Assembly: GCA_963666285.1 (NCBI GenBank)
Contig: OY762711.1
DNA: 64,000 bases
Source: Sedimentisphaerales bacterium
Lineage (GTDB): Bacteria; Planctomycetota; Phycisphaerae; Sedimentisphaerales; SM23-30
Reading direction: 5' to 3' (one strand)
In this document: positions 9,799-27,607 of the stretch, one piece after another
Layout of the letters: each line of letters starts with the position of its first letter
How positions within the stretch are numbered: the stretch's first letter is position 1
Notes under the pieces: generated by a model
What the model saw: the letters and a program-made list of their open reading frames with translations, nothing else
Told to the model about the DNA's origin: nothing
Databases searched by the model: none
Program-made: the position numbers and the translations under genes

Positions 9799-9822
9799 AT
9801 ACTTTATCCATAAACTGGAAAA

Positions 9823-9861
9823 GTGATATTGCTATAAAGTAAACCTCTACAGCAATATCAC
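9823..9861 (-). terminator. Intrinsic terminator
   Basis: GTGATATTGCT...AGCAATATCAC stem followed by a U-run on the minus strand, downstream of the PEP-CTERM gene. Confidence 0.65.
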
Positions 9862-9885
9862 AATATTAAAATCATATTAAAAATA

Positions 9886-10695
9886 CTAGGCTTTGAACTT
9901 GCGACGCATAGCAACACCGCCAAGGGAAAGTAAAATAATAGTCGATGGCTCAGGAACAACAATCGCCTGAACTTCAACACAGCTTAACGCATGGTCGTAA
10001 ACACGAACATCATCCATATTACCAATCAATGCTTCTCGCGGCTGCGGCACACCACTAAAGGCGTTTCCACCGCCAAGACGAATATATTCATCATCGATGA
10101 AAGTAGTGTTAACTACCTGATTTCTACCTGCTGACTGAGAAAGCTCATTACCATCTAAGTAAAATTTGATTTCAGAAGTTGTTGTTGAGCCATCAGAATT
10201 TAAATCATCGACAACCATTGCCACATGATACCATTGATTATCTACAAGGTCTTCTTTGGCAAGTGCAAGAGCATTACCACCGGAAACTTCCATCCTTAAC
10301 CTGTTGTCTTCAATGAGCAACCGGAAATACTCCTGGGAAGCATTACCATTACCCCACTCGATCAAAGTATGGCGATATTTATCTTCAGTAAGCTTAAACC
10401 ACATAGCAACAGTTCGGGCGTTACCCCCTAGAACACCTTGAGAATCGGTTAGAATCCAATCATTACCATCAAAAGCAAGTGCAGTATCTCTAACAGAGTC
10501 ATTTATCCAGGTTGGACCTTCTCCGGCACCGGCAGGCAATTCATTTTGCATAAATGCAGCATTACTGTTTCCAGTGCCTGAATCCGACACAGACAAGCCA
10601 CTTGCTTCATTCATTTCCCAATGATGCAGCAAACCTGCATCTGCCGAAAAAGAAACCACTAATAACACTGTCAAAAACAAAATAACTTTCTTCAT
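9886..10695 (-). CDS. PEP-CTERM-anchored LamG domain protein
   Basis: Start refined to MKKVIL (ATG 10695, GGAGGA RBS upstream); LamG motif GNMDDVRVYDHAL; C-terminal VPEPSTIILLSLGGVAMRRKFKA. Confidence 0.88.
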   Translation of the reverse strand: MKKVILFLTVLLVVSFSADAGLLHHWEMNEASGLSVSDSGTGNSNAAFMQNELPAGAGEGPTWINDSVRDTALAFDGNDWILTDSQGVLGGNARTVAMWFKLTEDKYRHTLIEWGNGNASQEYFRLLIEDNRLRMEVSGGNALALAKEDLVDNQWYHVAMVVDDLNSDGSTTTSEIKFYLDGNELSQSAGRNQVVNTTFIDDEYIRLGGGNAFSGVPQPREALIGNMDDVRVYDHALSCVEVQAIVVPEPSTIILLSLGGVAMRRKFKA

Positions 10696-10749
10696 CTTTT
10701 CCTCCATAGATATTAAATTACATGGCATACAGCCAAAATATAAAACCTA

Positions 10750-10777
10750 TGCTGAGCCGCAAATAAGCAGCCCAGCA
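10750..10777 (-). terminator. Intergenic hairpin (terminator or RNA stabiliser)
   Basis: Minus-strand GCUGGGCUGC-UUAUUU-GCGGCUCAGC stem-loop between two co-oriented genes; no strong U-tract. Confidence 0.45.
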
Positions 10778-10827
10778 AGGTAACATGAAAAAATTGTCAA
10801 AAAAGAATTACTCATAGTAAGCCTGTA

Positions 10828-13002
10828 CTAATTACAAGCTTGCTGCGGATATAGATTACAGCTTAGCCAATCAATTGCAAACTGGGCAAAATCGGCAACA
10901 TTAACCATACAGTTTCCATCAAAATCCATTTCCGGTTGTGTTTTGCATGCAGGCATCCCAACAACTGAATAATAATCCTCGGCAAGAATTTCAAATGGAA
11001 CCGGATAATTCCAGACTTTAACATCATCAATTAAACCACTAAACCGCTCCTGGCCATTTCGATTACAACCAACCTGGAACTGGCCAAAATCTATATCAGA
11101 AACAGAACTTTGAACTTTTACTATTCCATCCAGGTTATAGTAAACTTCAGTAGAAAAACCATCACAAACAACAGTAATATAAACCCAATCTGTCGACGAG
11201 GCAGGTCCAATTAACATGCCCTGGCTTCCCCAGTATCTGTACTGTCTATCAATACTAAAATCAATCTGGAAATCACTGCCGCCATCGTTATTATTGAAGA
11301 TACCAGTATATTGCCCCTGGTTTTCAGTCTCAGCTTTAACCCAAAATGCCAAAGTGTATCCCGCATAGAAAGTTTTAGGTTCAACGGTCTCCGGATCACC
11401 ATCCATATCAATACCTAATGGAGCAGTAAGCCGATCATAGTCACCATTAGATTCTACTACAAATTCAGCCGAATGACTGCCGATGGCACCCGGGATATCG
11501 TCTGATAATGAAGGGAATGTAATATTCGGGTCAGCCGGATCTACCTTAACAGATTCATCTATAGCATCATTGCCATTGTTAGACATATCCATAAATTCTG
11601 ATGTTTCCATGTCCCAATATAAAACCATCCTATTGATAGTAAAATAAGCCGGTTCAGAAGGAACTTCCGTACCGCTGGCATTTGAAACAACACAGTAATA
11701 GTAACATTCATTAGCAACTTCAGGTATTAGAGATAAAACAGGTGTGTCAATACCAACCGGCGAATCATCAGCAGATAACGGATCATTATTGTTATCAATA
11801 GATTTATACCATTGATAATGCGGTGTAGTTAAGCTGCTAACCTCAATAGAAAAAGAGACTTCAGGATCACCTACAAATGCTGAATTATGCTCAGGCTGGC
11901 TAATAATAACAGGAATACTTGGTAAAGAACCAAACGTCCATACCGGGCCTTCGATTGTTGCAGGAGATGTTGGAGCAGAATCATTAACGCTTTCATCTAC
12001 CCTCCAGTAATAATTCTTATCAAATTCAAGAGATAAAGAGTTTGTATTTGAAGACAACTCCTGAGGTACCACATCAATAAAATTAGGTTCATCAACACTA
12101 ATATAGAAATAATGCTTGGTAATGCTTGGGTTAGCCTGAGTTTCGTCAGCAGGATTAACGGCGACATTCCAGCTAAAATCAACACTCACTTTATCACCGT
12201 CAATCACTCCCTGATGAACAGCATTATTGGCCGGACTTGGGGCCCAGGCCTTAACATTCACCAGATTAGCAATTTCCAGATCAGATAAAGCATTGTCATA
12301 AATACGAACATCGTCCATTAAACCAGTCAAAGGCTCACGAGGTAGATCTGATGCCTGGAAGGAATCGCCACCACCAAGACGAACATAATCATTATCTACA
12401 AATGCAGTATTAACCAGCTGATTTGCTCCTCCAGTTTGAGGAACTTCAGCACCATCAAGATAAAATTTAACTTCCGGTGTCCTTACCGCACCGTCATTAT
12501 TAAAATCATCAATAGCTAATGCAACATGATACCACTGGTCTATGACCAATTCCCCGGCAGTAAGAGCTAAAGCATTACCGCCAGCCACTTCAAAACGCAA
12601 CCTGCCATTCTCTATCAAAAAACGGAAATACTGTGAACTGGCAGCATTATTACCCCATTCAACAAGAGTATGACGATTTGATTCCGCTGTCATTTTTACC
12701 CATGCCGAAACCGTTCTTGGGGTACTGTTTAAGACACCCTGAGAATCAGTTAAAATCCAATCATCACCATCAAAGTTTAATGCAGTACCACGAACAGAAT
12801 CACCAGACACCCAGGTCGGACCTTGCCCGGAACTTGAAGCAGGATTTGCCCCCTGCATAAATACCCCGGTATTACCGCCGGTTCCAAAATCAGCAGTGGT
12901 AAACCCGCTGCCCTCGTTCATTTGCCAGTGATTTACCAACTCTGCTTGCAAAGATACTGCCAGGCACAAAAGAGTAGTTGTAAGATATCCCACTAATTTC
13001 AT
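10828..13002 (-). CDS. Secreted LamG-Ig-LamG protein with C-terminal dockerin-like motif
   Basis: Signal peptide; GLMDDVRIYD, YYWRVDE, YQWYK...YYCVVSN, GLIDDVKVWN; DFDGNCMVNVADF..FAIDWL. Confidence 0.8.
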   Translation of the reverse strand: MKLVGYLTTTLLCLAVSLQAELVNHWQMNEGSGFTTADFGTGGNTGVFMQGANPASSSGQGPTWVSGDSVRGTALNFDGDDWILTDSQGVLNSTPRTVSAWVKMTAESNRHTLVEWGNNAASSQYFRFLIENGRLRFEVAGGNALALTAGELVIDQWYHVALAIDDFNNDGAVRTPEVKFYLDGAEVPQTGGANQLVNTAFVDNDYVRLGGGDSFQASDLPREPLTGLMDDVRIYDNALSDLEIANLVNVKAWAPSPANNAVHQGVIDGDKVSVDFSWNVAVNPADETQANPSITKHYFYISVDEPNFIDVVPQELSSNTNSLSLEFDKNYYWRVDESVNDSAPTSPATIEGPVWTFGSLPSIPVIISQPEHNSAFVGDPEVSFSIEVSSLTTPHYQWYKSIDNNNDPLSADDSPVGIDTPVLSLIPEVANECYYYCVVSNASGTEVPSEPAYFTINRMVLYWDMETSEFMDMSNNGNDAIDESVKVDPADPNITFPSLSDDIPGAIGSHSAEFVVESNGDYDRLTAPLGIDMDGDPETVEPKTFYAGYTLAFWVKAETENQGQYTGIFNNNDGGSDFQIDFSIDRQYRYWGSQGMLIGPASSTDWVYITVVCDGFSTEVYYNLDGIVKVQSSVSDIDFGQFQVGCNRNGQERFSGLIDDVKVWNYPVPFEILAEDYYSVVGMPACKTQPEMDFDGNCMVNVADFAQFAIDWLSCNLYPQQACN

Positions 13003-13111
13003 TTTTAACCTCCAAAACGTTGAAAAGTATGTTTAACAGTCGAAAATTACATATTTCCGCGCGCACATTCCTTGTATAGGTCGCCGACAAGCCACCAAAA
13101 TCTAAATAGTT

Positions 13112-14749
13112 TTAATTAAAGGCTGAATTATATAATGATTCAATTTGACGGTCGCTTAGCTGACCGGGAAACAAAATAATATCAGAAATCGCTCCATCCA
13201 TACCTTTGATACCATCAAAATCTCCTCCAATTATGAAAGTGCTATAAGGAGCAACAAACTCTGCTTTATCATTTTCAGAAGCACTAACCTTCTGACCATT
13301 TATATACATGTATTTATAGCTAGTATCATTACTTGCACGAACAATGGTAATAAAATACCACTTATTGGTCTCAAGTGTTATGTCACCTCTTGCTGTTTTA
13401 GCTTTATCTGAGTCAATACTATAGGCAAAGTGCTCTAACTTACCTTCCGAATCTATCATATTAACACGCCAATTACCCCCTGAATCCGGACTATCGGCAC
13501 AAATAAACTGAGGTTCAATTGAATTCAGTTTCACCCAATAGCCAATAGTATAGTAGTAATTTTTGTGCTGGGCGAGTGACCGCATATTATTAACCGTAAC
13601 GGCAGGTTGGGAACCAAAAACTCTAAGAGCACTGGACTGTTTATTGCCCGTGAGAACAGGCCCGGAAACAGAATACATCTGCTGGTTGACACTAACATCT
13701 AAAGTTGAGCCAGGAATATTATTTTTAAGTATTGCAGGATGATCACCATCAACTTTGAGATGCATAATAGCACCGAGAGATTTAGCGGTTAAATCAAACC
13801 TGGTTGGCATATCAAAGGCAAAGCTAGTAGTATCAAGCTTGATATTCACAATTTGATCAGATGTTGCCCGGCATGCCTGATTGGCACAAAGTCTTACCGA
13901 ACGTGACGACTCGTTGTCACCTGACGACACTGCCTCCATCTCGATGATGCCGGATTTGACATAAGCCTCAGTAACCTCCATACCATCAGTATATATACCA
14001 AACCTGGTACCAAAATCAGTTATAGATGCAGCAGGCGTATCAACAGTAAACCCTATTGCCTGGTGGGAAACATTAGCAGTAAGCCTGCCCTCGGCGAGAT
14101 ATATTGTATTGCTGGAAAACAGGTTGATCTCTGCCGGAGCTTCAAGAATAAGGTCAACACCTGTATTAAGATGTATCTGGGCAAAACCATTTATAAGTGT
14201 ATACACACCGGGTTTCATATTACGGTTATCATTATCCGGATCGAAAGAATTTTCCCATTGGGCATTTATCTGGTCACTTACATAAGCAACATTTTTATTA
14301 TTGCCGTCAGCGGTAAATCTGAGCCAGAAATCAAGTACAGCAAAAGAGATTAAAATCAGGATAACAGCAGCAGTTGAAAGAGCAAAAGAAATAATATTTG
14401 ACCTGCGACTACGCTGGTCAGACTGGATACTGTCTTTAGTTTTATCTAACTCAACTGCGTTATTTTCTGGAATATCAATAGAAGGAGCCGAAGCCTCATA
14501 CTTAGCCATTTTGTCAAGAATATCAGATTCTTTGACAGCACTTAACTGGAGATATAAGCCAAATTCATGGCTGATAGCCTTATCATTTTTTAAAGCGGCA
14601 CACATAGCAATATATTCATAATAATATTTGCACGCAAGCTCATCTTGAGAAAGAATGTTATCAAGCTCAGATAACTGCTCTTCGGTTATCGTTCCTTCCC
14701 GGACCGCATCGCAAAGATCAAATAAAATTGTATATTTATCATCTTTCAT
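13112..14749 (-). CDS. FecR-like anti-sigma factor with C-terminal LamG domain
   Basis: Single transmembrane segment; FecR motif GFTVDTPAASITDFGTRFG; directly downstream of an ECF sigma gene. Confidence 0.85.
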   Translation of the reverse strand: MKDDKYTILFDLCDAVREGTITEEQLSELDNILSQDELACKYYYEYIAMCAALKNDKAISHEFGLYLQLSAVKESDILDKMAKYEASAPSIDIPENNAVELDKTKDSIQSDQRSRRSNIISFALSTAAVILILISFAVLDFWLRFTADGNNKNVAYVSDQINAQWENSFDPDNDNRNMKPGVYTLINGFAQIHLNTGVDLILEAPAEINLFSSNTIYLAEGRLTANVSHQAIGFTVDTPAASITDFGTRFGIYTDGMEVTEAYVKSGIIEMEAVSSGDNESSRSVRLCANQACRATSDQIVNIKLDTTSFAFDMPTRFDLTAKSLGAIMHLKVDGDHPAILKNNIPGSTLDVSVNQQMYSVSGPVLTGNKQSSALRVFGSQPAVTVNNMRSLAQHKNYYYTIGYWVKLNSIEPQFICADSPDSGGNWRVNMIDSEGKLEHFAYSIDSDKAKTARGDITLETNKWYFITIVRASNDTSYKYMYINGQKVSASENDKAEFVAPYSTFIIGGDFDGIKGMDGAISDIILFPGQLSDRQIESLYNSAFN

Positions 14750-14755
14750 ACGTTG

Positions 14756-15289
14756 TCAGTCCCATTCCATCTTTCTACTAACACATTTAAACAATGCTAC
14801 ATGTATTTTTTTATACTCTTTATACAATATGTTTACGCTTTTTTCCGTTCTTCTCGCAATTTTCTGGACAGTCTGCCCATCTTCATACCTGAGAGCGAGC
14901 AGGTTTTTGCTTCTTTGCGAAAGTTTTTCTATACATTTGCGCAGTGCTTCCAATGGTTTTTGAGACTCCTTCGCAGAGACTTCGGCAATATCGCTAAGCT
15001 TTTCCAGAGTTGATGAGGTAAAATACTTTCTCTTTGTCTTATCCTTTTTAATATGAGAAAGAACCTGAAAATGAGCAATTTTAAACGCCCAGGCGAGAAA
15101 ATCGGTGCCTGGAGTGTATTCTTGGAATTTTTCCCAGAGAATAACAGTAGTCTCCTGAAATATATCATCAGCTAAATTCCAATCAGCTACATACGACATA
15201 ATAAAACCGTAAATTCTATGCTGATTCGGTGTTAGCAAGTGAAGAAAGCTTTGTATCAATTCTTGTTTGTAATCTTTGTTATCTACCAT
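14756..15289 (-). CDS. ECF sigma-70 factor (Planctomycete/Verrucomicrobia type)
   Basis: ADDIFQET..LWEKF..Y.PGTDFLAWAFKIA (region 2); LRKCIEKL...LLALRY (region 4). Confidence 0.9.
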   Translation of the reverse strand: MVDNKDYKQELIQSFLHLLTPNQHRIYGFIMSYVADWNLADDIFQETTVILWEKFQEYTPGTDFLAWAFKIAHFQVLSHIKKDKTKRKYFTSSTLEKLSDIAEVSAKESQKPLEALRKCIEKLSQRSKNLLALRYEDGQTVQKIARRTEKSVNILYKEYKKIHVALFKCVSRKMEWD

Positions 15290-15437
15290 TTTGGAGCAAT
15301 TAATAATGCATCTTAAAAATTATGATATAAGCATATATCCTCTCATCAAGAATTTCGCCATTTTTTTCAATAAAAATACTAGATTTTCCCTCAAAACTGC
15401 GCACACAGGCATTTTTTAGGGAATATTTTAAATAGAG

Positions 15438-15470
15438 AAAGCCTCATAAGTTATTTACTTACAAGGCTTT
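15438..15470 (-). terminator. Terminator hairpin downstream of tRNA-Lys fragment
   Basis: Minus-strand AAAGCCUUGUAAGU-AAAUA-ACUUAUGAGGCUUU, fully paired with two G-U pairs; identical copy at 44168-44200. Confidence 0.6.
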
Positions 15471-15476
15471 ATTAAG

Positions 15477-15521
15477 TACGCCATTTAGGACTCGAACCTA
15501 AAACCCACGGATTAAGAGTCC
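15477..15521 (-). pseudogene. 3' half of tRNA-Lys(CTT) (att core)
   Basis: Minus strand GGA-CTCTTAA-TCCGT...TTAGG-TTCGAGT-CCTAA-ATGGCGT-A gives the anticodon loop, T-arm and 3' acceptor strand; no D-arm or 5' acceptor strand. Confidence 0.85.
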
Positions 15522-15529
15522 CAAGCTCG

Positions 15530-16976
15530 GGTAGTGTCAAGAATCTTTCGCACATTTATTAGAGTATCCTTCATCCGGTCTTTTCCCGGTTCTGGATGCC
15601 CCCCTAGGGGGGCGGCGAGTTATCGGTCGCTAGCCAGTTTTTTTATTCATTTTTTGCTCCTTCTCAAGATCGTATAAATGCTCCATATTCAGATATCTTT
15701 TAGTACTCCATTTTGTTCCTGCTATATGTCTTAGCCGGGCAGTGGCTAACATCAAAGCACTATGACCGTCTGGAAAACTACCAACAACTCGGGTACGTCG
15801 CCGAATCTCTTTCATTATACGTTCCAGACCATTATTGGTTCTCAGTCTGCTCCAATGCTCATCAGGGAAGTTATAATAGCTCATAGTCTCCATGTAACCT
15901 TCTTCTACAACTTTGGCAGCTTCTTTCAATTTCATAGAGAGAAGTTTTTCAATTACCTGCCTGGCTTTTTCCTCTGCTGCTTTCTTGTCTTCCTGAGCAT
16001 GGATAGCTTTAAGCATAGCCGCTACCTCACGAACCTTCTGACGTGGAACTTTGCTAAAAACATTACGATACCAATGTACTGTACATCTTTGCCATAGCGA
16101 GTCTGGGTAGTATTGCTCAAGAGACTCTACCAGCCCCATGCACTTATCTGTAACAAACAACCTTACATCTTTAAGCCCTCTGGATTTCAAATGCCTGAGA
16201 AATTGCCCCCATCCTTCCTTGTCTTCTTTGGGACCTTCCCAGCTGCCTAATACCTCTCGGTAACCGTCCTGATCGACTGCTATTGCGACCAGGACTGAAA
16301 CATTGCGAACCTCTCCAGCCCAGCTTCTTTTTAGAACTATCCCATCCAGGTAAACATAAGGGTAATTGCCTTTAAGCTCTCGATTACGCCATTGTTCTAT
16401 CTGACTGTAAACCTTCTTGTTGAGATTGCTGATTGTGCCGGGACTTACCTTTGTTCCCCATAACGTCTGAGTGATATCTTCAACCCTGCGAACAGAAACG
16501 CCTGCAAGATACATTTCTATTAGAGATTCCTCTACGGATGATTCACGACGCTTATAACGCTCAATTATGGCTGTCTCGAATGTGGTCTTACGCAACTTGG
16601 GCATCTTCAAATTGACTTCACCGGCTTGAGTTTGCAACTTACGATCATAGAAACCTGCTCTGGTATCTTTACGAGCTTCGCTACGCTCATATCGTGCAGC
16701 ATTACAAAGCTGGTCAGCCTCGGCATCAAGCATGGTATTCAACGTATCCTCAACGGTGGTACGTACTAGATCTCCAAGCTCATGCTTTACCCGTGCCTCA
16801 TCAATTTTTATGACATTATTCAAGTTCTTGTCATTTCCGGTCGATTGCTCTAACTGTTTCATTTGAAGTCCTTTCTTCTGGTTAATAATAATTTGTTCGT
16901 TACATTACTATCGACCGGATGAAGGACTTCTTTTATCACGTCCAATAAAATTGTGCGAAAAATATTATACGTTATC
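15530..16976 (-). mobile_element. IS256-family insertion sequence
   Basis: Imperfect terminal inverted repeats GGTAGTGTCAAGAATCTTTCGCACA and GATAACGTATAATATTTTTCGCACA (reverse complement); 8-bp target duplication CAAGCTCG at 15522-15529 and 16977-16984. Confidence 0.92.
15630..16862 (-). CDS. IS256-family (Mutator-type) transposase
   Basis: EMYLAGVSVRRV, YVYLDG, FVTDK, WQRCTVH and RTNNGLER motifs. Confidence 0.95.
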   Translation of the reverse strand: MKQLEQSTGNDKNLNNVIKIDEARVKHELGDLVRTTVEDTLNTMLDAEADQLCNAARYERSEARKDTRAGFYDRKLQTQAGEVNLKMPKLRKTTFETAIIERYKRRESSVEESLIEMYLAGVSVRRVEDITQTLWGTKVSPGTISNLNKKVYSQIEQWRNRELKGNYPYVYLDGIVLKRSWAGEVRNVSVLVAIAVDQDGYREVLGSWEGPKEDKEGWGQFLRHLKSRGLKDVRLFVTDKCMGLVESLEQYYPDSLWQRCTVHWYRNVFSKVPRQKVREVAAMLKAIHAQEDKKAAEEKARQVIEKLLSMKLKEAAKVVEEGYMETMSYYNFPDEHWSRLRTNNGLERIMKEIRRRTRVVGSFPDGHSALMLATARLRHIAGTKWSTKRYLNMEHLYDLEKEQKMNKKTG

Positions 16977-17118
16977 CAAGCTCGCTCTATATCCCCTATA
17001 TTTACAGGCACTTACAAGCCTATTTTGGTGTAAAAATGGCACTTACAGCACAATAACAATACAACACTAACTACAATAACACGGGGTTGACAGTTGCGAT
17101 TGACACCATTTTGACACC
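16977..17118. repeat. att-like junction copy 1: right arm
   Basis: 142 bp, end-to-end homologue of the equal-length 44252-44393, ending in an identical GGTTGACAGTTGCGATTGACACCATTTTGACACC. Confidence 0.85.
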
Positions 17119-17192
17119 GCTTACTATACGTTAAAGTATCAAACGTTTCTCTTTCATTGATAATTAAAGAGAATTGTAATAGATTAAATGCT

Positions 17193-18338
17193 CTATTGAG
17201 ATAGCGTTTCATTTCTTTCTAAATGTCTTAATGTTGAGTTTATTTTTGATTGTAACACTTTTTTTGGGGGAAAACGCTTCTTAAGCATTTCTATAACGCC
17301 AATGTCACCTTTATTTGCTACGCTAGTTTTAACGGCTTTTAATGCCCATTTAATTTCATAATCTTTATTCGATTCTTTAAGTACAGCATGAACTTCCGGC
17401 TTGATATCTTTATATGAATAATAATGAAGACAATAGATACCTTTCTGCCTTAGGGCTAAATTAGACGAATCTTTGATGATGTTTTTTATGATCTTTAAGT
17501 CACCTTTTTGAGGGTAAGTAACCAGATTCAATAATGCACCGATCCGCAAACCATCTTTTTCCTTTGTATCATTAATTACACCATACAAAAACTTTCTGGC
17601 TTTACTATTCTTTTGAGTCCCGAGTATATAAAATGCTTTCTTAGAAATATTCTCATCATCACCCTTCCAGCCTTTATAGCTGCCAATCAATAAAGAACTC
17701 ACATCCGTTCTCTTACCAAGAATACAACCGCTCATAACAGCGTCTTTTAATATTTCATCCGCTTCTTGAGCGTTCATGGTTTCATACATCAGCCCAACAT
17801 ATTTATCACCTTTTTGACTTGCCAGGACATGGTAGCCCAGGGCTTTGACCTTATCAACATCACAGTTCATCGCAATTTTATACCAGAATTGGTCAGAACC
17901 AAATATTTTTTGTTTCATCAACTTATCATACATATCGTCAGGTACATCTGCTGGCAATTCCTCTTGAAACTTCCACAACCTTTCAATCATAAAGACCTGA
18001 ACAATAAATTTCTTTTCCGGGCTGTCCTTTAGAGAAAACGGCGGCTGCCAAATATAATGCCCTGCCCGATCCTGCTGACATTCAGTATTATCCAGCACAG
18101 AAAAAGCCTTAGGGTAATCACTACGCGCTTTTAAGATATACGCTTGCAGCAAAACATCCCAGCTATCTGTCCCAATAGAATTAAGATCATTATTATATTC
18201 AAACTTTCCTTCAGCCAACAAAGCAGAATATAAATCCCCTTTTGTTTTAGCTAACAATTCTATCTGCCCATGATTAGTAGCGAAACAAAAACAACAACAA
18301 ATCAAATTAGCAATAATTATATTTAATATATTCTTCAT
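17193..18338 (-). CDS. Exported helical (HEAT-like repeat) hypothetical protein
   Basis: Signal-peptide-like N-terminus; C-terminal repeats such as KKAFYILG, LRIGALLNL, LRQKGIYCL and IKWALKAV. Confidence 0.6.
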   Translation of the reverse strand: MKNILNIIIANLICCCFCFATNHGQIELLAKTKGDLYSALLAEGKFEYNNDLNSIGTDSWDVLLQAYILKARSDYPKAFSVLDNTECQQDRAGHYIWQPPFSLKDSPEKKFIVQVFMIERLWKFQEELPADVPDDMYDKLMKQKIFGSDQFWYKIAMNCDVDKVKALGYHVLASQKGDKYVGLMYETMNAQEADEILKDAVMSGCILGKRTDVSSLLIGSYKGWKGDDENISKKAFYILGTQKNSKARKFLYGVINDTKEKDGLRIGALLNLVTYPQKGDLKIIKNIIKDSSNLALRQKGIYCLHYYSYKDIKPEVHAVLKESNKDYEIKWALKAVKTSVANKGDIGVIEMLKKRFPPKKVLQSKINSTLRHLERNETLSQ

Positions 18339-18364
18339 TTTTCACCTTTTCAATTATAAAACGT

Positions 18365-21300
18365 TTAGTTTTGTATTTCCGACCACCAGTTTATATTTGT
18401 TGGTATCACTCTTTTGGTATTACCGCCACAATGCACTTCACCGCTTTTTTTATGATAATACCAGTCATCAATAGCTACAACATCAATTGTACCTGGCAAA
18501 TCAGCTTCAAATGTTTCCAGAATTATATCACGTTGCGTTTCAAGAAGCCCGTTACCATTTAAGTCTTCTCCTTGATCAAGAATAAAGTTGCAATTGACAT
18601 CTTCATCAACACTACCAGTAAAATAACAAAAGAATGGATCCGGAGCTATATACGTGTCAATACTTATACCTTTAAAGACCATTCCATTAACTAGACCCGG
18701 AGTAGCCGCAAGTGCTCCTCCTCTATAAAACTCAAAAAGTACCGGTGCAAATATAATATCATTTTCAATGTCAAGGTTGAATATCTCAGCAACTGCGTTA
18801 TATAAGCCATTTTCGCCGGTCAGATATGAAGAACTTATCTGTTCGTTATAAACTTTAAGAGTAACACCATTAGTTGATTTATTAAGAAAACTGCTTACAC
18901 AAGATTCATAATCTTGTATACCATCTCCATCTACATCTTCTACTAGGCTAATTAATTTAGGTACATCTTGCCCATTAATATCATCATGTAAAATATCCAA
19001 TGCCAATTCAGGACTCGCCATCAAAACCTTCCATCCATGGGTTCCGCTTAGGTCAGGGATAATAGTCATAAACTCATCTACATGCCCAACAGAAAGCCAA
19101 TCAGTATCAAACTCAACAGGGCTTTGTATACCTTGCCTGGTCAGAAATGATTTGAGGTTGTCATATATTAAACTACCATAATATATCCTTCCATAAGGAT
19201 AACTGATACCAGAAACGGTACAAGGCGGACTTACTTCAAGATTTCCAAAGGAATTGTATGTACTATGATGGGAATATCCCTCCTCTATTTGTATTTGAAT
19301 ATGACCTTTGTCAACACCTAGAAAACCACTAGGATAATTTGTCACAGGGAAATTTTTCAAATCTCTATCTCGAACAGAATCCAGAATTACGTGCATTGAA
19401 TGATAAGGGGCTTTTTGATAGCATATTTGAAATTGATCTTGAGCCCACCTGTCTGTACTCTCGATAATGTTATCAATTACACTTTCCGGTGTTGCATCAG
19501 GAAATTCAATTAAACAATATTGACCTGATTCAGCACTACTATTCATTGAGACATAACTCTCAGCTACTTCATCCAAATGATGCAATAGTATCAGTGGCGC
19601 AACTTTAATTTTAATTTCATCATAATGAATAACTCTTTCCTCTGAATCAGAAATCGGGTCAACAAGTTCTGCTATCATTGTCAGTTCCCCGGCAAAATGA
19701 GGACCAAGTCCTTCGACTGCCAATTCTTTATCTTGACCATTAATATCATTTAATGAAATACAAGAACTTCCAACGCCACCAATTTCAAATTCAGAATCAT
19801 CAAATCCAGTATTCGTACTTGCATCAAGGCCTAAAATTGCTTCAGCATCAATGCTCCTCTCTGAAAACACTCTAACAATATCACTTGCCTGAGTCCCCTC
19901 TTTAACATTTTCTGGATTAGACAAACGTAATCTTATATGCCAGTCATCTGGTACTGAGTATGACACAAGCGGTATCTTTCTAAGTATTACTTTAGCCATA
20001 TCACTTAAATCGTCTTCCCCATCTATATTTGCATCGAGGCAGTCTTTTCCCAGTGGAATAGTATTAGAGTCAATCACATCTTCTCCTGGTGCTAAGTAAT
20101 CATCATTATCTACATTACATAGAGTGATTATACCCCATTGATTATTTTCTGCCGCTATATTATCATCCTCATCATTATCATTAACATTTCCATCGTGATT
20201 TCCGTCGCCGTCAATATCCACCTTGAGAATGCATAATTCATAATTCAAAAAAGATTCCCAGCCGGTTGCTCCATCGCCGTCAGGATCAATTTCTACTGTT
20301 ATTAGGTCATAATCCGGCACGGTACTTTGCTTAACAGCTTCAACATAAAAAGTCAAACAATTCCCTCCATTGTCAACATTCATATCTGAAACGCTATAAC
20401 CGACATTGGACTTAATATAATCGCCGCCAATATCAGCAGGTGCAATTTTTCGACTTATATCTCCATTTACATTCCACAATCGCATTTTCCCATCTGGCAG
20501 TGTATATATATATTCGTTTCCTGCCAACTTAACCAACTGATCTGGATCTGATTCAGAATAAATAAACTTAATATAAGCAACATCCATATCTATATCATCA
20601 GGTAAATATGCCTGAACTCTTAAAAACTGACCTCCAGCTCCTATTCCATAATTTCTATACTTATCTATACCATCGGCATAATTAGGAATAAGATCTTTAT
20701 CTTCATCAGTATTGTTAACACCAAGGTATTGTACTTGCCATTCATAGGCTCCCATATCAATTGAACCATGTGCTACCCTAGCATTTCCTGCTAAATCTTT
20801 TGGAATACTGGTATAGCTGGAGCCCTGGTTAACACATGGTGAATTACTCATAAGCTCATAATTCGAGTTAACAGAAGAAACAAAAAGTGGATCTTGGTCA
20901 ATATTTCCTCCTCCATCAGTACCATATATAGAATTCCAGCTCCCACCACTCCCGTTACAATTATGAACATTACTGTTTTCAATTAATACATTATTCGAGA
21001 ATGGACGAATTTCAATTGAAGACGAATCTATATAATTCCAAATTATACAATTCCTAATTAGTACGTCTGCTTCATTTCCATAAAAGCAAATATTTGGATA
21101 CCTCTGCGAAATATTATCCACAAATGTGCAGTTATTGATTTCAATATCGTAATTAGAAACTAATGCACTATTGTAATATGCGATATTATTTGTAAATAAG
21201 CAGTTGTTTATAATAACTTTCTCATCTCCTATAGTGCCAGTATTATAAAATTCAACTGCACCAGAATACTTCGCAGCATTATTGTTAAAAATACAGTTTG

Positions 21301-21903
21301 AAATCAAAGGAGATACACCATCCAGACAACTTATTGCCCCCCCACAGTATAAGTTGATATATCCATTATGTTACTTTCAAAGATACAATTCAATATCGAA
21401 GGACTACCTGCTGCACAATAAATTGCGCCTCCAAGCCGTGCCCCATTTGAGTCTGGAGCATATCCTCTGGTAATTGTCAAACCGTTTAATATGGAATTAT
21501 TTTCTTCATTATTTGCAAAAATGAAACCACGAGCAGGACTTTGTGCAGTACCATTACAATCAATTACTGTACTGGAAATAACATATTTATCATTTGGAGC
21601 AATACTGCGAACCGTAATCGCTTTTCCATTATAATTCAAATCCACGTTACCTGCACCCGTATATGTCCCGGGATATATAATTACTTCATCGCCATCAACA
21701 GCGGCGTCTATTGCTGACTGGATAGTAACTTTGGGACCATGAATTCCATTCCACTCCGAAGCCTGACCATCCCACACATCATTACCATTACCTGATACAT
21801 AGTTAACATCTCCATAGGTAATATTAATTACCATAAAAAGTAAACTTGCACAAATCCTTCTCATACTCATAGATTTATTCTCCATACAGTTACAAAATAA
21901 CAA
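18365..21903 (-). pseudogene. Secreted beta-helix (choice-of-anchor Q-like) + protein-arginine deiminase fusion, split by one frameshift near 21340
   Basis: ORF 21331-21903 has a signal peptide, TIQSAIDAA..GD and GGAIYC. The second frame continues GGAISCLDGVSPLISNCIF into ORF 18365-21307, which has SPCVNQG/IDMGAYE and PAD motifs DRWAQDQ, WLSVGHVDEF, GEVHCG. Confidence 0.8.
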
Positions 21904-22234
21904 AACATAGAAATCAGTAGAGCTTCAATTAATTTGCTAATATATCGCAACTCATAATTTGCAATCATTAATTCTATGAATTATTTTTTTGAGGTTACCA
22001 TAAATTCAACCACAAATTGTATTTTACAACTTAATGCTAGCAAGGCAAATAGTTTTTTATATAATCTTACTAATAAACCTACATGAAAGGAATGTTCTAA
22101 TAATGAAATACGGATAAATAATCCGTTGCTCCGTTTGATAGTGCCGCCCTACGCTCAATCATCGCTATTTCTCGCCAAATAATCCGTATGCTTTTTGGCA
22201 AAAAAGAGCAAATTTGGAGAGTGTAAAATACAAG

Positions 22235-22523
22235 TGACACTAAAATGACTCCATTGGTGTCTTTTTGCGATTTTCACATGCCAAGAAATTGATGCAAGTT
22301 ATTTATCCACAATCTGTTATATCATCGCCGAAAAGTACGTTTTTTAGGCCTACCTAGTCTTAAGAGTACGATATAAGGGATTTTAGACAAAATATAAGTC
22401 ACTAGAGAACAAGGACTTATATAGATAATTATTTATTCTCCAAATACTTACATCAGAAAAATAGTAGTTTAGTAGTAGATAAGTAGTAGACTGCAAATGC
22501 ATACTGCGCACGCAAGTGCGCAC
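22235..22523. repeat. Cluster of short direct-repeat pairs around a degenerate tRNA-Lys core-like sequence
   Basis: TGACACT/TGACTCC (22235, 22246), AGTAGTAGA x2 (22471, 22482), TGCGCAC x2 (22505, 22517), and AAGTACG..TTTAGG..ACCTA..TTAAGAGT (22333-22367). Confidence 0.5.
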
Positions 22524-22686
22524 ATAGGGAAGGTTGTCCTAGGGAAGACAAAGCTTAGGACTATATATGGTATCCTCCAATAATTAAACAATACTCTGGC
22601 TATGATTAAGCTTGACATCAACTCTTCTGGCTGGATAATAACATAATCATTTATTTTTAACTGTAGTTTTTTTTATCCATAACAAC

Positions 22687-23298
22687 ATGAATATAAGCCA
22701 AGAAAAAATTATTCAAGCCAAGAATGTTTTCAAAAGAAATGGTGGCATCCTACGTACCACTGAAGCCCTCAACCAAGGCGTCCACCCAAGAACTCTATAT
22801 TATATGAGAGATAACGGCATACTGGAAGCCTTATGCAGGGGTACATACCGCCTAGCCGAATTGCCCCCACTTGACCAACATGATGTTATAACAGTTGCAT
22901 CAAAAGTAAAATCTGGTGTAATATGCCTCATATCTGCTCTATCATTCCATGAGATAACAACCCAGATTCCACATGAAGTATACACCGCAATAAGTCGCAA
23001 CACAGCATATCCAAAACTTAGCTATCCTCCATCACTATTTTTCAGGTTTTCTGACGACTCTTTTAATGCAGGAATAGAAATTCACAAGATCAGTGGCATC
23101 GAAGTAAAGATTTACTCAGCAGAAAAAACCATTGCGGACTGCTTTAAATATCGAAACAAAATAGGCCTTGATGTCGCTATTGAAGCTATGAAATTCTGGA
23201 GAAAGAAAAAAGATATCAGAATTGACAAGCTGATAGAATACGCCAAAATATGCAGAGTATATAATGTTATCAAGCCGTACGCTGAGGCAATGCTATGA
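22687..23298 (+). CDS. abiEi: Type IV toxin-antitoxin AbiEi-family antitoxin/regulator
   Basis: N-terminal wHTH (GILRT..AL..G.HPRTL...RG.YRL); ICLISALSFHEITTQIP; EKTIADCFKYRNKIGLDVAIEA. Confidence 0.85.
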   Translation: MNISQEKIIQAKNVFKRNGGILRTTEALNQGVHPRTLYYMRDNGILEALCRGTYRLAELPPLDQHDVITVASKVKSGVICLISALSFHEITTQIPHEVYTAISRNTAYPKLSYPPSLFFRFSDDSFNAGIEIHKISGIEVKIYSAEKTIADCFKYRNKIGLDVAIEAMKFWRKKKDIRIDKLIEYAKICRVYNVIKPYAEAML

Positions 23299-24185
23299 GC
23301 CAGAAAAATGTTAAAAATATCGCTGCCTCTATCAAGCAAAAATTGCTTAACAAATCAAAAGAGATGGCTCGACCATTCTCTGAAGTTCTTCAATATTATG
23401 GCCTTGAAAGATTCCTATATCGAATTTCAGCGTCTAAATATCAGAACAACTTTACACTCAAAGGAGCATTGCTATTCACCGCTTGGAGACAGTCTGCTAT
23501 TAGATCAACTGTTGACATTGACCTTCTTGGAAAGGTTAGCAACAATCCCGACGATATAGTCAAGATTTTTCAAGACATCTGTAATCAAAAGACAGAAGAT
23601 GATGGACTTAGATTTGATGATTCCAGCATAGTCGCTGAACAGATAACACTTGATGCTGACTATCAAGGCGTTCGAGTACTCCTCTATGGCTATTTAGATA
23701 CCGCCAGAATTAGAATACAAGTTGATATCGGTTTCTCAGATGTTATTACGCCAGACTCAGAAGTTCTGGAATACCCAACAATACTAGATATGCCAGTTCC
23801 AAAGTTAAACTGTTATAACAAGGAAACAGCAATAGCAGAAAAACTCCAGGCTATGGTCAAACTGGATCTTCTCAATAGCAGGATGAAAGATATATACGAT
23901 ATCTGGATCCTATCTCAGCAATTTGAATTAAACAACCTATCTTTAGCCAATGCCATCCAAAATACTTTTGAACAACGTAAAACTAAAATAACTACAGATA
24001 TTACGACCTTTACAGAAGAGTTTTATCTTAATGATGAGAAAATTGCTCAATGGAAGGGTTTTCTTAAAAGGTCAAAAGTAACTGGCACTCCCATAGAACT
24101 TGAAAAGGCTGTTCTTGATATCAAATCATTTCTGCTTCCTATTTTGACTAAAATCACACAAAAAGATGACATTAGAAAAAACTAG
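23295..24185 (+). CDS. abiEii: AbiEii/AbiGii-family nucleotidyltransferase toxin
   Basis: ERFLYR, LKGALL, RSTVDIDL, IAEK and NSRMKDIYDI motifs; 4-bp overlap (ATGA) with the antitoxin gene. Confidence 0.88.
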   Translation: MSQKNVKNIAASIKQKLLNKSKEMARPFSEVLQYYGLERFLYRISASKYQNNFTLKGALLFTAWRQSAIRSTVDIDLLGKVSNNPDDIVKIFQDICNQKTEDDGLRFDDSSIVAEQITLDADYQGVRVLLYGYLDTARIRIQVDIGFSDVITPDSEVLEYPTILDMPVPKLNCYNKETAIAEKLQAMVKLDLLNSRMKDIYDIWILSQQFELNNLSLANAIQNTFEQRKTKITTDITTFTEEFYLNDEKIAQWKGFLKRSKVTGTPIELEKAVLDIKSFLLPILTKITQKDDIRKN

Positions 24186-24232
24186 ACCCCAAAGTCATCA
24201 ATCTGACAATTCACAACTATTCAAATAATAAG

Positions 24233-24892
24233 CTAGATACCTAATTCGCTAAAATCAAGTTTCCTAAGTTTGAATTTAGAATCTACCATTTTCGATCTTT
24301 TCGGACCAACAGGTTCACTTTTTAGCTGTTCCTCAATCTCTATATATTTTTCTCTGACCAGTGTTACTTTCTTACTATAATATTTATTTCTAACCCATTC
24401 TAATTCTTCTGGTGTACATAAGTCCAAAGCGACCTGCGGCAACTCATCCAGATACAAATATTCAATGTAATCAGAACCATTTTCAACATCAGGTCGTTCC
24501 TGTTCGACGCCCAGAATATGAGGAATAAAGAATAGATTTGCTAACATAGCCTCAACAAGTTTGTCAGATGCTCTTTGCTCATTACCTACCCGATATAAAA
24601 CAAGCATCCATACTAAATAATGAGCAGCATCTCCAATATCATCAGGAAACTTTTCTCCATACCACTGATAGTATTCCAATGCTCCATCCAAATCATCAAT
24701 AAGCAGGTAAAGCAGACCTAGCAAATAACGTTTACCTGCCCCATCGCTTATCCAGCCATGTTCTTCTTGTTCTTTTTTGAAAGATCTTTTATATCTGCTA
24801 ATTCTCTGTTTTAACTTTTTAGGATCAGTGGGTATATCATACATAATGGTATTCCTTCGCTTGCTTTTTCGCCTTATTTCAATATAATTCAC
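24233..24892 (-). CDS. Hypothetical helical protein
   Basis: 219-aa ORF with TPR-like helices (DGAGKRYLLGLLYLL..DLDGALEYY.W....FPDD); start may be the downstream MYDIP. Confidence 0.6.
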   Translation of the reverse strand: MNYIEIRRKSKRRNTIMYDIPTDPKKLKQRISRYKRSFKKEQEEHGWISDGAGKRYLLGLLYLLIDDLDGALEYYQWYGEKFPDDIGDAAHYLVWMLVLYRVGNEQRASDKLVEAMLANLFFIPHILGVEQERPDVENGSDYIEYLYLDELPQVALDLCTPEELEWVRNKYYSKKVTLVREKYIEIEEQLKSEPVGPKRSKMVDSKFKLRKLDFSELGI

Positions 24893-24927
24893 CGATTAAT
24901 TTATACATTAATCCTGGAGAAAGCAAC

Positions 24928-25947
24928 TTGAAAATATTATATAGAGTAATCACTACTATACTGGTTCTTATCTTAAAAAATAAGCAGGCTCTAATCCTTG
25001 AAAATATAGCTCTTCGTCAGCAAATAATAATATTACAACGAAGTGTCAAACGTCCTAAAATAAATAACACTGACCGATTATTCTGGATATGGCTATCTCG
25101 TATCTGGGATAACTGGAAATCAGTATTACTTATCGCTAAACCTGAAACAGTAGTTGGCTGGCATATAAAAGGTTTTAAGGCATATTGGAAATGGAAATCC
25201 CGTAGAGTAGGCAGACCTAATATTGATTGGGATCTTATCAAACTAATAAGGAAGCTACAAAAGGAGAACCATCTCTGGTCTGCTCAACGTATTCAGGGTG
25301 AGCTTGCAAAACTAGGATACTCAGTTTGCGAAAACACTGTCGCCAAGTATATGCAAAAACCAAAACCTACTCCAAACCAAAGACAACGTTGGCGAACATT
25401 CATTAAAAATCACGCAAAACATATTGTCGCTATAGATTTCCTTGTTGTCAGAACAATATGTTTTAAGGCTATCTATGTTTACGTTGCACTTTCACATGAT
25501 CGGAGGAAAATCCTGCATGTTGGCGTAAGTTCCAGACCGCATTCACAGTGGGCAATACAACAATTACGTAAAACATTCGCATTTGATGAAACAACCAAAT
25601 ATGTTATTCGCGATAATGACAAAATATATAGCGATGACTTTAAGCATGTAATTGGAAGTTTTGGTCTGGAAGACAAACCTACCGCCATACACTCACCATG
25701 GCAAAATGCTTATTGCGAAAGAGTAATTGGCACACTTCGCAGAGAATGTCTAGATCATATGATCATCCTCAATGAGAAGCATCTTCGCTCCATTCTAAAT
25801 GAATTTGTTGTTTACTATAATAACAGCAGAACTCACATGTCACTTGCCAAGGATTCTCCTGTTGGCAGAGATGTAAAGACTGAAGGTAAAATCTTCAAAA
25901 AGCCAATACTTGGCGGCCTGCATCACGTTTACAACAGAGCTGCTTGA
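24928..25947 (+). CDS. Integrase-core (rve) DDE transposase, IS3/IS481-related
   Basis: LENIALRQQ, PETVVGWH, AIDF, IRDND, SPWQNAYCERVIGTLRRECLDH and GGLHHVY motifs. Confidence 0.85.
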   Translation: MKILYRVITTILVLILKNKQALILENIALRQQIIILQRSVKRPKINNTDRLFWIWLSRIWDNWKSVLLIAKPETVVGWHIKGFKAYWKWKSRRVGRPNIDWDLIKLIRKLQKENHLWSAQRIQGELAKLGYSVCENTVAKYMQKPKPTPNQRQRWRTFIKNHAKHIVAIDFLVVRTICFKAIYVYVALSHDRRKILHVGVSSRPHSQWAIQQLRKTFAFDETTKYVIRDNDKIYSDDFKHVIGSFGLEDKPTAIHSPWQNAYCERVIGTLRRECLDHMIILNEKHLRSILNEFVVYYNNSRTHMSLAKDSPVGRDVKTEGKIFKKPILGGLHHVYNRAA

Positions 25948-25961
25948 TTATTGATATATAC

Positions 25962-27221
25962 TCAATGGTAATTCAACCATACGGAGAATGTACGCTCTAT
26001 TTTTACGAAAGCATCATGAACTTTCTCGATTTCAGCAATTTTCTCACCAACATCAAAATAAATATTAAATTCAGATTGTTCTACTTCAGAAGTAAATCTA
26101 AAAAGTGAACAATAAGTTGTACCGGTACCCTCCCAGCTGGTATTCTGTAGGTTAAGATCAACGTTCCAGTAACCAGGATCAAGTATTTCTGTTTTTTTGT
26201 CAACATGACCGCCATAATGGACAGGATCGACTTGGCCAGGCCTTGCACTCAATCTAAAAGCTCCTAAACAGTAATCATAAAGGCAGCGTATCCCTGCCAA
26301 TGAATCACTGCCGTACCAATACGATCCTCCACCGGTGTCTGGAGATGAATGAATCATCGCATATGGAGCTCCAGCACCTGGCTTTGATTCAAATACCCTA
26401 TTGTAAAAACCAGTGTGGTAAGTCGGATCCACTAACTGAACCGGCATTTCGGGATAATCTTCCCATCCAATATCAGCAGTCTCTTTTTGCCTTGAAACCA
26501 ATCTTAAACAATCCCACTCAATATACGTCGAAGAAAGTGGTGTTAAAATTATTTTGCTACCTTGTTTAAGGTAATTAGAGCGAAAACGAACAGATTTCGT
26601 ATCTGAATCCATCCAGTAACGATTTCTATAACCATTAATATCGATAAGCATCAACATGGCAGAGCCATTGTTTCTAGCTACAACATCTAAAACAAGCTCA
26701 CATTGCATATCTGCCTGATTAACATCTACATTAAAAAATAATGTTAAGGGATGAACATAACCAATTTTTTCATTCGCCATATGCCTGGCCCAGACATCTT
26801 CAGGGCCAGGAAGATAAGCAGGAAACGAAACCTCAACATTGTCTTGACCAATTTTAAATGTAATATTTTCAGGATAATAATTAGTAAATCTCTCTTTTTC
26901 CCCAGAAATATGAAACTCACTAGAATTGTCATTATCAAGACCTATTTGCCAAAGCAGATCCCCCTGTTCTGCTAGAGTAATCGTGCCTGAGAAAAGAACG
27001 GCAACTATCAATACATACTTATTAAAATCTGTAAGAATCATCTTAATCCTTTCACTGATAATATCTTTCATGTAAATCATTATCATAGATATGCTAAAGT
27101 TAGAACTTACTTTTGTTTTTCTAAAGTATTTAAGCAATCGATCATTAAGAGTAATTGTATTAAAAGTGCATCCTAATATAAATCGTATTTCACGACAAAA
27201 CCATCTTAAATTGCGACACAT
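25962..27221 (-). pseudogene. Truncated secreted glycoside hydrolase (N-terminal LWQIG domain plus start of a GH92-like domain)
   Basis: Likely true start is internal (MILTDFNKYVLIV..., signal peptide). VDP..TG...PGAGAPYAMIHSSPDT resembles the GH92 N-terminus. The ORF stops far short of a full enzyme, 14 bp from the convergent transposase stop. Confidence 0.5.
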
Positions 27222-27607
27222 CCCTTTAAATATTGAAGTGTTAAATATATATGATAGACACTTTTCTAGAGGTCTCTATTTGCATATAATTCTTTCACTT
27301 TGATAAGCACCTAAACATAAGAACAAGTTTAATTTCTGCCCATACATACCAATCGACATCTGAAAGGCAATTGGTAAGAAATTACCTCTGACAATTAACA
27401 GCCCACCATTGAAAAATTGGCATAAGACACATATCTGCAATACATTACAACATTTCCACAACAAACAACATTGATAATTACATAATATTAATGTTGTTCA
27501 ACACCCAAATAATCTATGTATATTTGCTTGATAATTACCTATACAGTTTTGTTGCAACGGTGTGAGAAACTAATGCAAATACCCCTAAAAAGAATGTAAA
27601 TGACTGT

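Follow-up and report, generated by a model that had tools for sequence, protein, structure and literature searches.

A pair of adjacent genes in the 64,000-nucleotide (nt) stretch of Sedimentisphaerales bacterium DNA analysed here (contig OY762711.1 of GenBank assembly GCA_963666285.1; hereafter ‘the window’) encodes a PADI-type protein-arginine deiminase (PAD) and, directly downstream on the same strand, a protein predicted to be a HEAT-like helical solenoid. We tentatively interpret this pair, with somewhat less than even confidence, as a horizontally acquired two-gene cassette in which an exported deiminase carrying a beta-helix is accompanied by an exported HEAT-like partner that serves as its periplasmic inhibitor or holding partner, and in which a run of seven G residues (G7) breaks the deiminase gene. 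The region comprises three minus-strand open reading frames (ORFs) arranged head to tail, at 21331..21903 (190 codons), 18365..21307 (980 codons from a TTG) and 17193..18338 (381 codons). The first two, called ORF-A and ORF-B below, are parts of the deiminase gene, and the third encodes the partner.

By its sequence, the large gene is a PADI-type protein-arginine deiminase of the two-domain bacterial type (PAD_M plus PAD_C). The Pfam PAD profile (PF03068) matches ORF-B residues 581-914 with an E value of 2.1e-56 (192.1 bits against a cut-off of 25), and a scan of the bacterium’s own genome with PF03068 gave 170 bits. All 27 matches returned by a sequence search of the PDB are PAD1, 2, 3, 4 or 6 (best E 5.5e-38). 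The motifs DRWAQDQ, WLSVGHVDEF and GEVHCG are located at residues 640, 758 and 977 of ORF-B (numbered over 18365..21370, minus strand), and Asp645, His763, Asp765 and Cys981 within them align with the catalytic motifs of PAD1 and PAD4. Motif alignment places the catalytic codons on the minus strand at 19436..19438 (Asp645), 19082..19084 (His763), 19076..19078 (Asp765) and 18428..18430 (Cys981). The PAD_C catalytic domain as a whole spans 18368..19600 on that strand (residues 591-1001), as judged from PF03068, the PDB alignment and a structure model. Neither the Porphyromonas/agmatine deiminase type (PF04371) nor any other deiminase family appears among the Pfam matches at E values of 0.01 or less. 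A preliminary description of this locus had named the same motifs, coordinates and 26-nt gap between the genes, had assigned the enzyme to the PADI rather than the Porphyromonas/agmatine type, and had proposed a search with the Pfam PAD profile; the sequence and the profile match bear out all of these points.

The AlphaFold2 model of ORF-B is confident from residue 380 onward, with low confidence for the N-terminal 376 residues. Its residues 379-1000 superpose on residues 110-663 of human PAD4 (Z 43.1, root-mean-square deviation 2.7 Å, 513 residues aligned), and this superposition recovers both the immunoglobulin (Ig)-like PAD_M domain and the catalytic fold. The PAD_M-like Ig domain lies at 19601..20221 (minus strand; ORF-B residues 384-590), carries acidic DxDxDG and NVDNDD loops, and is conserved across the clade. 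No Pfam match to PAD_N or PAD_M was obtained in ORF-B, and the protein does not have the three-domain organization of the animal and cyanobacterial PADIs. Among the residues compared at the presumed calcium sites, Gln644, Asp664, Ser665 and Glu712 are kept, and Gln646, Gln648 and Asp668 replace Glu, Glu and Asn of PAD4. Gln648 is invariant within the clade. PAD_C also contains a clade-specific acidic insertion of 26 residues (18527..18604, minus strand; ORF-B residues 923-948). This insertion resembles a calcium-binding loop, and up to three tandem repeats of it are present in PADs from assemblies labelled ‘Rickettsiales’ (loci L009-L016).

The PAD gene is present as a single copy in its own genome, and searches of 60 relatives, drawn from its genus, family and order and including 39 that are at least 90% complete, yielded no PAD match. 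This distribution agrees with the original remark that PADI-type enzymes occur patchily in bacteria. The nearest proteins are five metagenomic sequences with 39-40% identity over about 60% of the query; their N-termini are quite different, and one carries Beta_helix repeats. In a quick maximum-likelihood tree, from which 11 partial PAD pieces were left out, the window PAD groups with four PADs of Planctomycetota-type assemblies (support 99). This group adjoins a large clade from Myxococcota and the assemblies labelled Rickettsiales, and the clade of animal and cyanobacterial PADs (support 99) stands apart from it. Thus, the initial view of the enzyme as an animal-type PADI is right as to the family, but its closest kin are other bacterial two-domain PADs and not the animal PADIs.

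The catalytic part is preceded by two further regions. Beta-helix repeats occupy 20726..21370 on the minus strand (ORF-B residues 1-215) and include a choice-of-anchor Q motif at 20735..20863 (minus strand; residues 170-212; NCBIfam NF041518, E 2.8e-7, 30.7 bits against a cut-off of 25). This part is similar to the proteins P0114, P0112 and P0118 (blastp E values from 6e-26 to 1e-18), and the N-terminal similarity extends to proteins with Chlam_PMP and Beta_helix repeats; together with the NF041518 match, this corroborates the beta-helix N-terminus that had been noticed earlier. The AlphaFold2 model of the region is of low confidence, yet it shows strand pairs about every 24 residues. Pfam searches of the N-terminal part gave DUF5123 alone, at an E value of 0.007 and under its cut-off. 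In the PDB, ORF-B residues 1-385 matched nothing by sequence, and ORF-A gave only matches with E values of 0.04-0.5 (a tail spike and alginate lyases). Between the repeats and PAD_M lies an acidic middle module of no known family (20222..20725, minus strand; ORF-B residues 216-383, about 170 residues), which has no Pfam match and is modelled at a predicted local distance difference test (pLDDT) score below 50. Four copies of this module occur in P0007 and two in P0024 (blastp E values from 3e-20 to 6e-9).

The reading frame of the deiminase gene is broken. ORF-A, the 5' piece (21331..21903, minus strand), probably starts at the ATG at 21870, which has a GGAG 9 nt upstream. Its product begins like a signal peptide, continues into the first coils of beta-helix-type repeats, and ends at a TAA at 21331-21333. 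ORF-B (18365..21370, minus strand; 1001 codons from stop to stop, or 980 from the TTG at 21307) has an open frame only from 21370 onward and lies in the -1 register with respect to ORF-A. It opens in the middle of a beta-helix repeat and encodes the rest of the beta-helix, the middle module, PAD_M and PAD_C. The two frames overlap at 21337..21343, where the coding strand carries seven consecutive G residues (seven C on the plus strand). One extra base in this run would create a single stop-to-stop frame of 1186 codons, or about 1170 codons from the ATG at 21870. Moreover, the beta-helix protein P0114 is matched in blastp by the end of ORF-A (residues 107-178) and then, consecutively, by the start of ORF-B. 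Because P0114 spans both pieces and one added base joins the frames, ORF-A and ORF-B are best regarded as one gene with a one-base homopolymer frameshift. The deiminase therefore does not have a single intact reading frame, and since the frames differ as sequenced, its signal peptide and its catalytic part are not joined. The preliminary description had treated 18365..21903 as one gene and had overlooked this frameshift; the region is two frames, with the break at G7.

A homopolymer run is a classic site of error, and the frameshift could be a mistake of sequencing or assembly in an intact gene. Contigs built from the public runs X1 and X2 cover 17089-25917 in one piece, with zero differences, an identical G7 and a depth of 23-27, so that contigs assembled separately from two runs reproduce the seven bases. 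These two runs derive from one sample, which is possibly the source of the assembly, and therefore their agreement is not independent support. Run X3, from another sample, produced no contig across 21287-21486 and says nothing about the G run. A second line of evidence comes from the genome as a whole (6.35 Mb, 41.2% GC), which contains 58 runs of at least seven G or C residues. A one-base change would join frames at only two of these, the G7 site and a minor site at C1:5488846; of the remaining 56, most sit within long open frames that such a change would shorten. The assembly is therefore not generally wrong at runs of this kind. We consider an error very improbable and take the seven G residues to be real in the bulk DNA. 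As to the second site, a C8 run at C1:5488846-5488853, a one-base change there would fuse two frames, lengthening the product from 133 to 243 codons. Over 15000-26000, X3 supplies only patches at 99% identity or more, and 16 of its 19 pieces fit partly and then continue into dissimilar sequence, as would be seen if that sample contained a mosaic relative of the locus.

If the frameshift is real, it could be fixed and inactivating, in which case the cassette would be a decaying remnant from which full-length enzyme is not made. The broken frames, the occurrence of G7 alone in the contigs of two runs, the position of the pair among insertion sequence (IS) elements in a variable region, and the 60 relatives that manage without the gene are all consistent with decay. 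However, the gene is otherwise open for 1001 codons and keeps all its catalytic residues, the partner is intact, and the break falls exactly in one of just 58 long G/C runs in 6.35 Mb, where reversible slippage is to be expected. The run also lies in the 5' coding part, about 175 codons past the likely start, as looked for in a phase-variable gene. On balance, we regard a decaying remnant as somewhat unlikely.

The partner gene (17193..18338, minus strand) follows the PAD stop codon after a spacer of 26 nt (18339..18364, minus strand), in which an AAGGTG sequence is positioned 5 nt before the partner ATG. It encodes 381 amino acids, comprising a signal peptide with a hydrophobic N-terminus, a family-specific N-terminal helical part, and HEAT-like repeats. 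The AlphaFold2 model is an all-helical solenoid (pLDDT 93, predicted template-modelling score 0.88) whose nearest folds are alphaRep, YibA, armadillo and importin solenoids, with Z values of 12-14 (13-14 for alphaRep and YibA). Fold searches returned generic HEAT and armadillo solenoids only, and no known inhibitor or chaperone was among them; in the Atlas fold search, HEAT clusters scored 0.90-0.92, with recognition below the mark. A word-based sequence search matched the partner to itself only. A full HMMER scan retrieved 28 representatives at E values of 1e-3 or less, most of them with 310-410 amino acids, end-to-end alignment and hydrophobic N-termini. Pfam HEAT_2 (PF13646 and its kin) matches 33 of 42 members of the partner family, although the window’s own protein has no match at E values of 0.01 or less. 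Taken with these HEAT_2 matches across the family, the predicted structure indicates that the partner is a HEAT-like solenoid. The hydrophobic N-terminus, the solenoid model and the family matches are in keeping with the earlier description of a signal-peptide HEAT-like gene 26 bp downstream of the deiminase.

When the phylum was searched with the partner profile, 137 of 401 genomes contained a match. Of the 150 matches that were listed, with 43 more beyond the list, the window’s own partner alone spans the model end to end; the others span parts of model positions of about 122-382, in proteins of very varied length. We attribute these other matches to generic HEAT repeats.

The association of the two genes is not peculiar to this genome. 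We sampled 47 PAD loci from contigs representing one genome per species, which together contain 4029 ORFs of at least 80 codons; because the sampled loci are mutually related, the counts that follow overstate the number of independent events. With the un-iterated partner profile, 19 of 20 matches (E < 1e-4) fell among the 90 ORFs directly downstream of a PAD gene and on its strand. After four rounds of iteration, 39 of 45 matches were directly downstream of a PAD, in 36 of the 47 loci, which belong to other phyla. As iteration could have drifted towards generic HEAT repeats, profiles were also compared directly. Profile-profile alignment with hhalign confirmed full-length homology of the window’s partner family with two other groups of partners, with probabilities of 98% (E 2e-13) and 95.8% (E 7e-9); the 257-281 aligned columns take in the N-terminal part outside the repeats. 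The partner from locus L004 aligns with the window partner end to end. The sequences thus establish that the order of PAD and then partner is conserved in other phyla. It had been proposed that the idea of a functional pair would fall if the HEAT-like gene proved to be unlinked to PAD homologues elsewhere, and the linkage in these 36 loci speaks in its favour.

Several features of the linked pairs suggest a one-to-one relationship. With two exceptions among the listed pairs, the distance from the PAD stop to the partner start falls between -41 and +91 nt, and -4 is frequent. Almost all PAD-linked partners have N-termini that resemble signal peptides. Where PADs are duplicated, as in the PAD-partner-PAD-partner tandem arrays of loci L009, L011 and L014, the pairing is kept. 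The first- and second-position PADs of these arrays form separate clades across genomes. Export is likewise a common property of the enzymes. Among partner-linked PADs with complete 5' ends, a simple heuristic for lipoproteins and signal peptides finds a lipobox in 21 of 32 and signal-peptide-like N-termini in three more; a lipobox was called in 20 of 248 control ORFs. The three PADs that fall in the animal/cyanobacterial clade lack both a signal and a partner.

Structure prediction for the complex of the window PAD and its partner gave weak support for binding. The median interaction score (ipSAE) was 0.38 (0.79, 0.38 and 0.00 in the three runs), and the best of three controls scored 0.00. 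Of 157 solved complexes, 116 reach the mark applied to such scores, as do 2 of 215 mismatched pairs; at scores of 0.60 or less, just 18 of the 157 solved complexes do so, together with both of the passing mismatches. The runs share at least 0% of their contacts, and the partner has a pLDDT of at least 78. Multimer prediction had been put forward as a check on the pair: the median exceeds the controls, but the runs disagree with one another. The partner likely binds the PAD; the prediction raises the odds of binding a little while being silent on the effect that binding would have.

We propose the following sequence of events. Both genes would be co-transcribed, given the 26-nt spacer and the partner’s own ribosome-binding site. 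Translation of the deiminase would begin at the ATG at 21870, and the product would be exported by the Sec pathway. With seven G residues in the run, translation would end after about 179 codons. Production of the full-length enzyme of about 1170 amino acids would need either an eighth G, gained by slippage during replication or transcription so that the run acts as an ON/OFF switch, or slippage of the ribosome by -1 on G_GGG_GGG. If the enzyme works as its homologue PAD4 does, Cys981 would then attack the guanidinium group of a peptidyl-arginine with the help of His763, Asp645 and Asp765, so that ammonia is released and citrulline remains. Calcium control of this activity is suggested by the acidic loops. 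Finally, the partner would silence the enzyme, or hold it in the periplasm, until the enzyme reaches its place; silencing in the periplasm would be called for because calcium is not limiting outside the cytoplasm.

Restraint of the enzyme in the periplasm is our first choice for the action of the partner, ahead of a role as a chaperone or a targeting subunit, and is drawn by analogy. Co-encoded periplasmic inhibitors, such as Inh/AprI for serralysin-type proteases, and private foldases, such as Lif for lipases, are known for exported enzymes. These systems and the one described here are alike in the order of enzyme and then partner, in the export of both proteins and in one-to-one pairing; they differ in fold and enzyme class, and the pairing here is known from genes and models. 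Restraint is preferred for three reasons. A calcium-activated enzyme would be active on leaving the cytoplasm, partners accompany exported PADs and not the cytoplasmic animal/cyanobacterial type, and the pairs stay together when duplicated.

The same observations can be read differently. The partner might be a private periplasmic chaperone, that is, a steric foldase or export helper that promotes PAD folding or surface delivery instead of inhibiting the enzyme, as lipase-specific foldases do for secreted lipases. Gene linkage, co-orientation, signal peptides and tandem pairs fit such a role too, and an all-helical scaffold could embrace another protein, for which the complex prediction (0.38 against a best control of 0.00) offers weak support. 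The absence of the partner from actinobacterial exported PADs, whose hosts have no periplasm, also suits a chaperone. However, most partners appear, on a heuristic reading, to be cleaved and soluble (sites of the Ala-x-Ala type) and not membrane-anchored, cytoplasmic PADs of the same fold need no helper, and tandem partner genes exist without a PAD. We judge a chaperone unlikely. Another possibility is that the partner acts as a subunit for targeting or regulation, delivering arginine-rich substrates to the enzyme, or that it is itself the substrate. HEAT scaffolds are often adaptor subunits, and among the nearest folds are importin-alpha and designed armadillo proteins whose structures were solved with Lys/Arg-rich peptides. 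Arginine is conserved in the repeats, with R265 being invariant in group A2 of the partner family. Against this, the fold matches are generic (template-modelling scores of 0.3-0.4; Z values of 12-14 within the range for any helical repeat), conserved arginine is typical of this repeat type, and no substrate is known, which makes this role quite improbable.

A number of observations count against the proposed cassette of a switched enzyme and its inhibitor. Inhibition by the partner is an analogy. The three complex-prediction runs disagree. Two positions occupied by calcium-binding acidic residues in PAD4 are Gln in the window enzyme (Gln646 and Gln648). The frameshift may simply mark a dead gene, and G7 is the only run length in the X1/X2 contigs, which drop minority lengths and cannot show them. 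With regard to linkage, 11 of the 47 PAD loci have no partner, including those of exported actinobacterial PADs and one lipoprotein PAD. Among these partnerless loci are three whose PADs have no export signal (two cyanobacterial and one campylobacterial), three from actinobacteria, a locus with just 411 nt of flank, and an extra paralogue in a genome with two full pairs. Nor is every member of the partner family located beside a PAD. The near-identical metagenome contigs L081 and L082, found in a metagenome scan that started with partner relatives, represent one lineage and carry two tandem partner relatives (P0123 and its neighbour) with no PAD within the 2.6 kb upstream and 1.2 kb downstream that they cover. 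The window partner is nearer to this PAD-less group (23-27% identity) than to the partners of the nearest PADs (16-18%). No PAD-HEAT fusion was seen among nine longer or weaker partner matches or among 52 proteins of 1030-2940 amino acids, which is weak evidence. As to origin, the nearest PADs are only 39-44% identical, and neither a donor nor the borders of an island were found. In L081 (2635-5110), and also in L082, the tandem partner genes follow two unknown ORFs of 248 and 434 amino acids, the latter internally duplicated, and precede a gene for a DsbA-like thioredoxin.

The genomic setting makes acquisition of the cassette plausible. The pair sits amid polysaccharide-use genes, including those for LamG proteins, a sulfatase, GH2, GH43 and GH92-like enzymes, and an extracytoplasmic function (ECF) sigma factor with its anti-sigma factor. 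An IS256-family element of 1447 bp (15530-16976, with a Mutator-type transposase at 15630..16862) is located 217 nt downstream of the partner and has three 100% identical copies in the genome. Directly upstream of the PAD gene and on the opposite strand are AbiEi antitoxin-like and AbiEii nucleotidyltransferase toxin-like genes (22687-24185) that overlap by 4 nt. Further upstream lies an IS481/IS3-like transposase gene (rve_3; 24928-25947), of which the genome has one full copy and, elsewhere, two short fragments. The GC content of 17000-26000 is 35.9%, compared with 39-40% in the flanking operons and 41.2% genome-wide. Because none of the 60 relatives carries a PAD, the GC content is lower, and IS elements and toxin-antitoxin genes flank the pair, the cassette was likely acquired horizontally. 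A DNA search of three genomes of the same genus with 8000-27900 as the query gave only short matches of 66-94%, and therefore the borders of an island were not set. No tRNA gene was detected in the window, and no flanking direct or inverted repeats frame the cassette. Promoter-like sites (35, against 27.7 +/- 5.9 in shuffled sequences) and terminator-like sites (4, against 2.7 +/- 1.7) are not informative. The preliminary description had called the system a mobile effector. Mobility is made plausible by the flanking IS and AbiE genes and the low GC content, but no borders, tRNA gene or donor were found to substantiate it, and the term ‘effector’ lacks support, as neither a secretion-system marker nor a target was found. 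As to the immunity or chaperone partner proposed there, what is established of a toxin-immunity pair is adjacency and common export.

Other features of the window were recorded in passing. The IS256-family copy at 15530-16976 splits a sequence of about 250 bp that is intact at 44128-44393. The genes for the ECF sigma factor (14756..15289) and for an anti-sigma-like protein with a LamG domain at its own end are followed by a row of LamG-protein genes (7060-14749). At 51257-55209, genes for a HerA-like ATPase and a DNA N6/N4 methyltransferase stand beside unknown genes in a region of low GC content that may be a defence island.

The window PAD shares with human PAD1-PAD4 (PF03068; PDB 5HP5, 1WD8/1WDA, 5N0M) the catalytic Asp/His/Asp/Cys residues and several calcium-site residues. 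Unlike these enzymes, it has no detected PAD_N, starts with an export signal followed by a beta-helix and an additional acidic module, contains the 26-residue acidic insertion in PAD_C, has Gln for two Glu residues that presumably bind calcium, is encoded with a partner, and falls outside the animal/cyanobacterial clade. The PPAD of Porphyromonas gingivalis (PF04371) is likewise a secreted bacterial enzyme that citrullinates, but it belongs to an unrelated sequence family, and no such match was obtained here at E values of 0.01 or less. Two-domain PADIs with divergent PAD_M and PAD_C and without PAD_N have been reported from non-cyanobacterial bacteria and fungi (Cummings et al. 2021, PMC8826395), and the window PAD agrees with this type, as given there, in domain content and bacterial origin. 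The main text of that paper makes no mention of HEAT, operons, signal peptides, neighbours, synteny or secretion, so that it does not deal with the export signal, the beta-helix fusion or the partner described here. A Streptomyces PAD of PF03068 makes the lasso peptide citrulassin, and the accessible portion of the preprint concerned counts 837 bacterial PADs in ‘highly diverse’ contexts and describes no neighbouring gene as conserved (Harris et al. 2020, bioRxiv 10.1101/2020.07.16.207027). The citrulassin enzyme is thus a bacterial member of the same Pfam family for which a deiminase role is shown; however, the actinobacterial PADs in our sample have no partner, whereas the window PAD does. 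Our literature search found no paper that describes a pair of a PAD and a HEAT-like partner.

What is known of citrullination comes mostly from animals and a single oral pathogen with an unrelated enzyme, and for bacterial PADI-type enzymes the literature, in the portions accessible to us, gives a role in lasso peptides and one assay of a cyanobacterial enzyme. The occurrence of an exported PAD with a dedicated partner across phyla points to regular, regulated modification of protein arginines outside the bacterial cytoplasm. More speculatively, and with considerable doubt, a two-part system of extracytoplasmic citrullination might be spread over multiple phyla, in which an exported or lipid-anchored PAD would be silenced in the periplasm by a dedicated HEAT-like partner in an immunity-like manner, and tandem partners without a PAD would be orphan protectors against the enzymes of neighbours. 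The copy in the window would then have been transferred in, fused to a surface-binding beta-helix and placed under the control of a G-run switch. New in this copy are the beta-helix fusion and the possible homopolymer switch, along with partner relatives that live without a PAD. As a possible natural regulator or inhibitor of a PAD that is itself a protein, the partner would be relevant to research on PAD inhibition.

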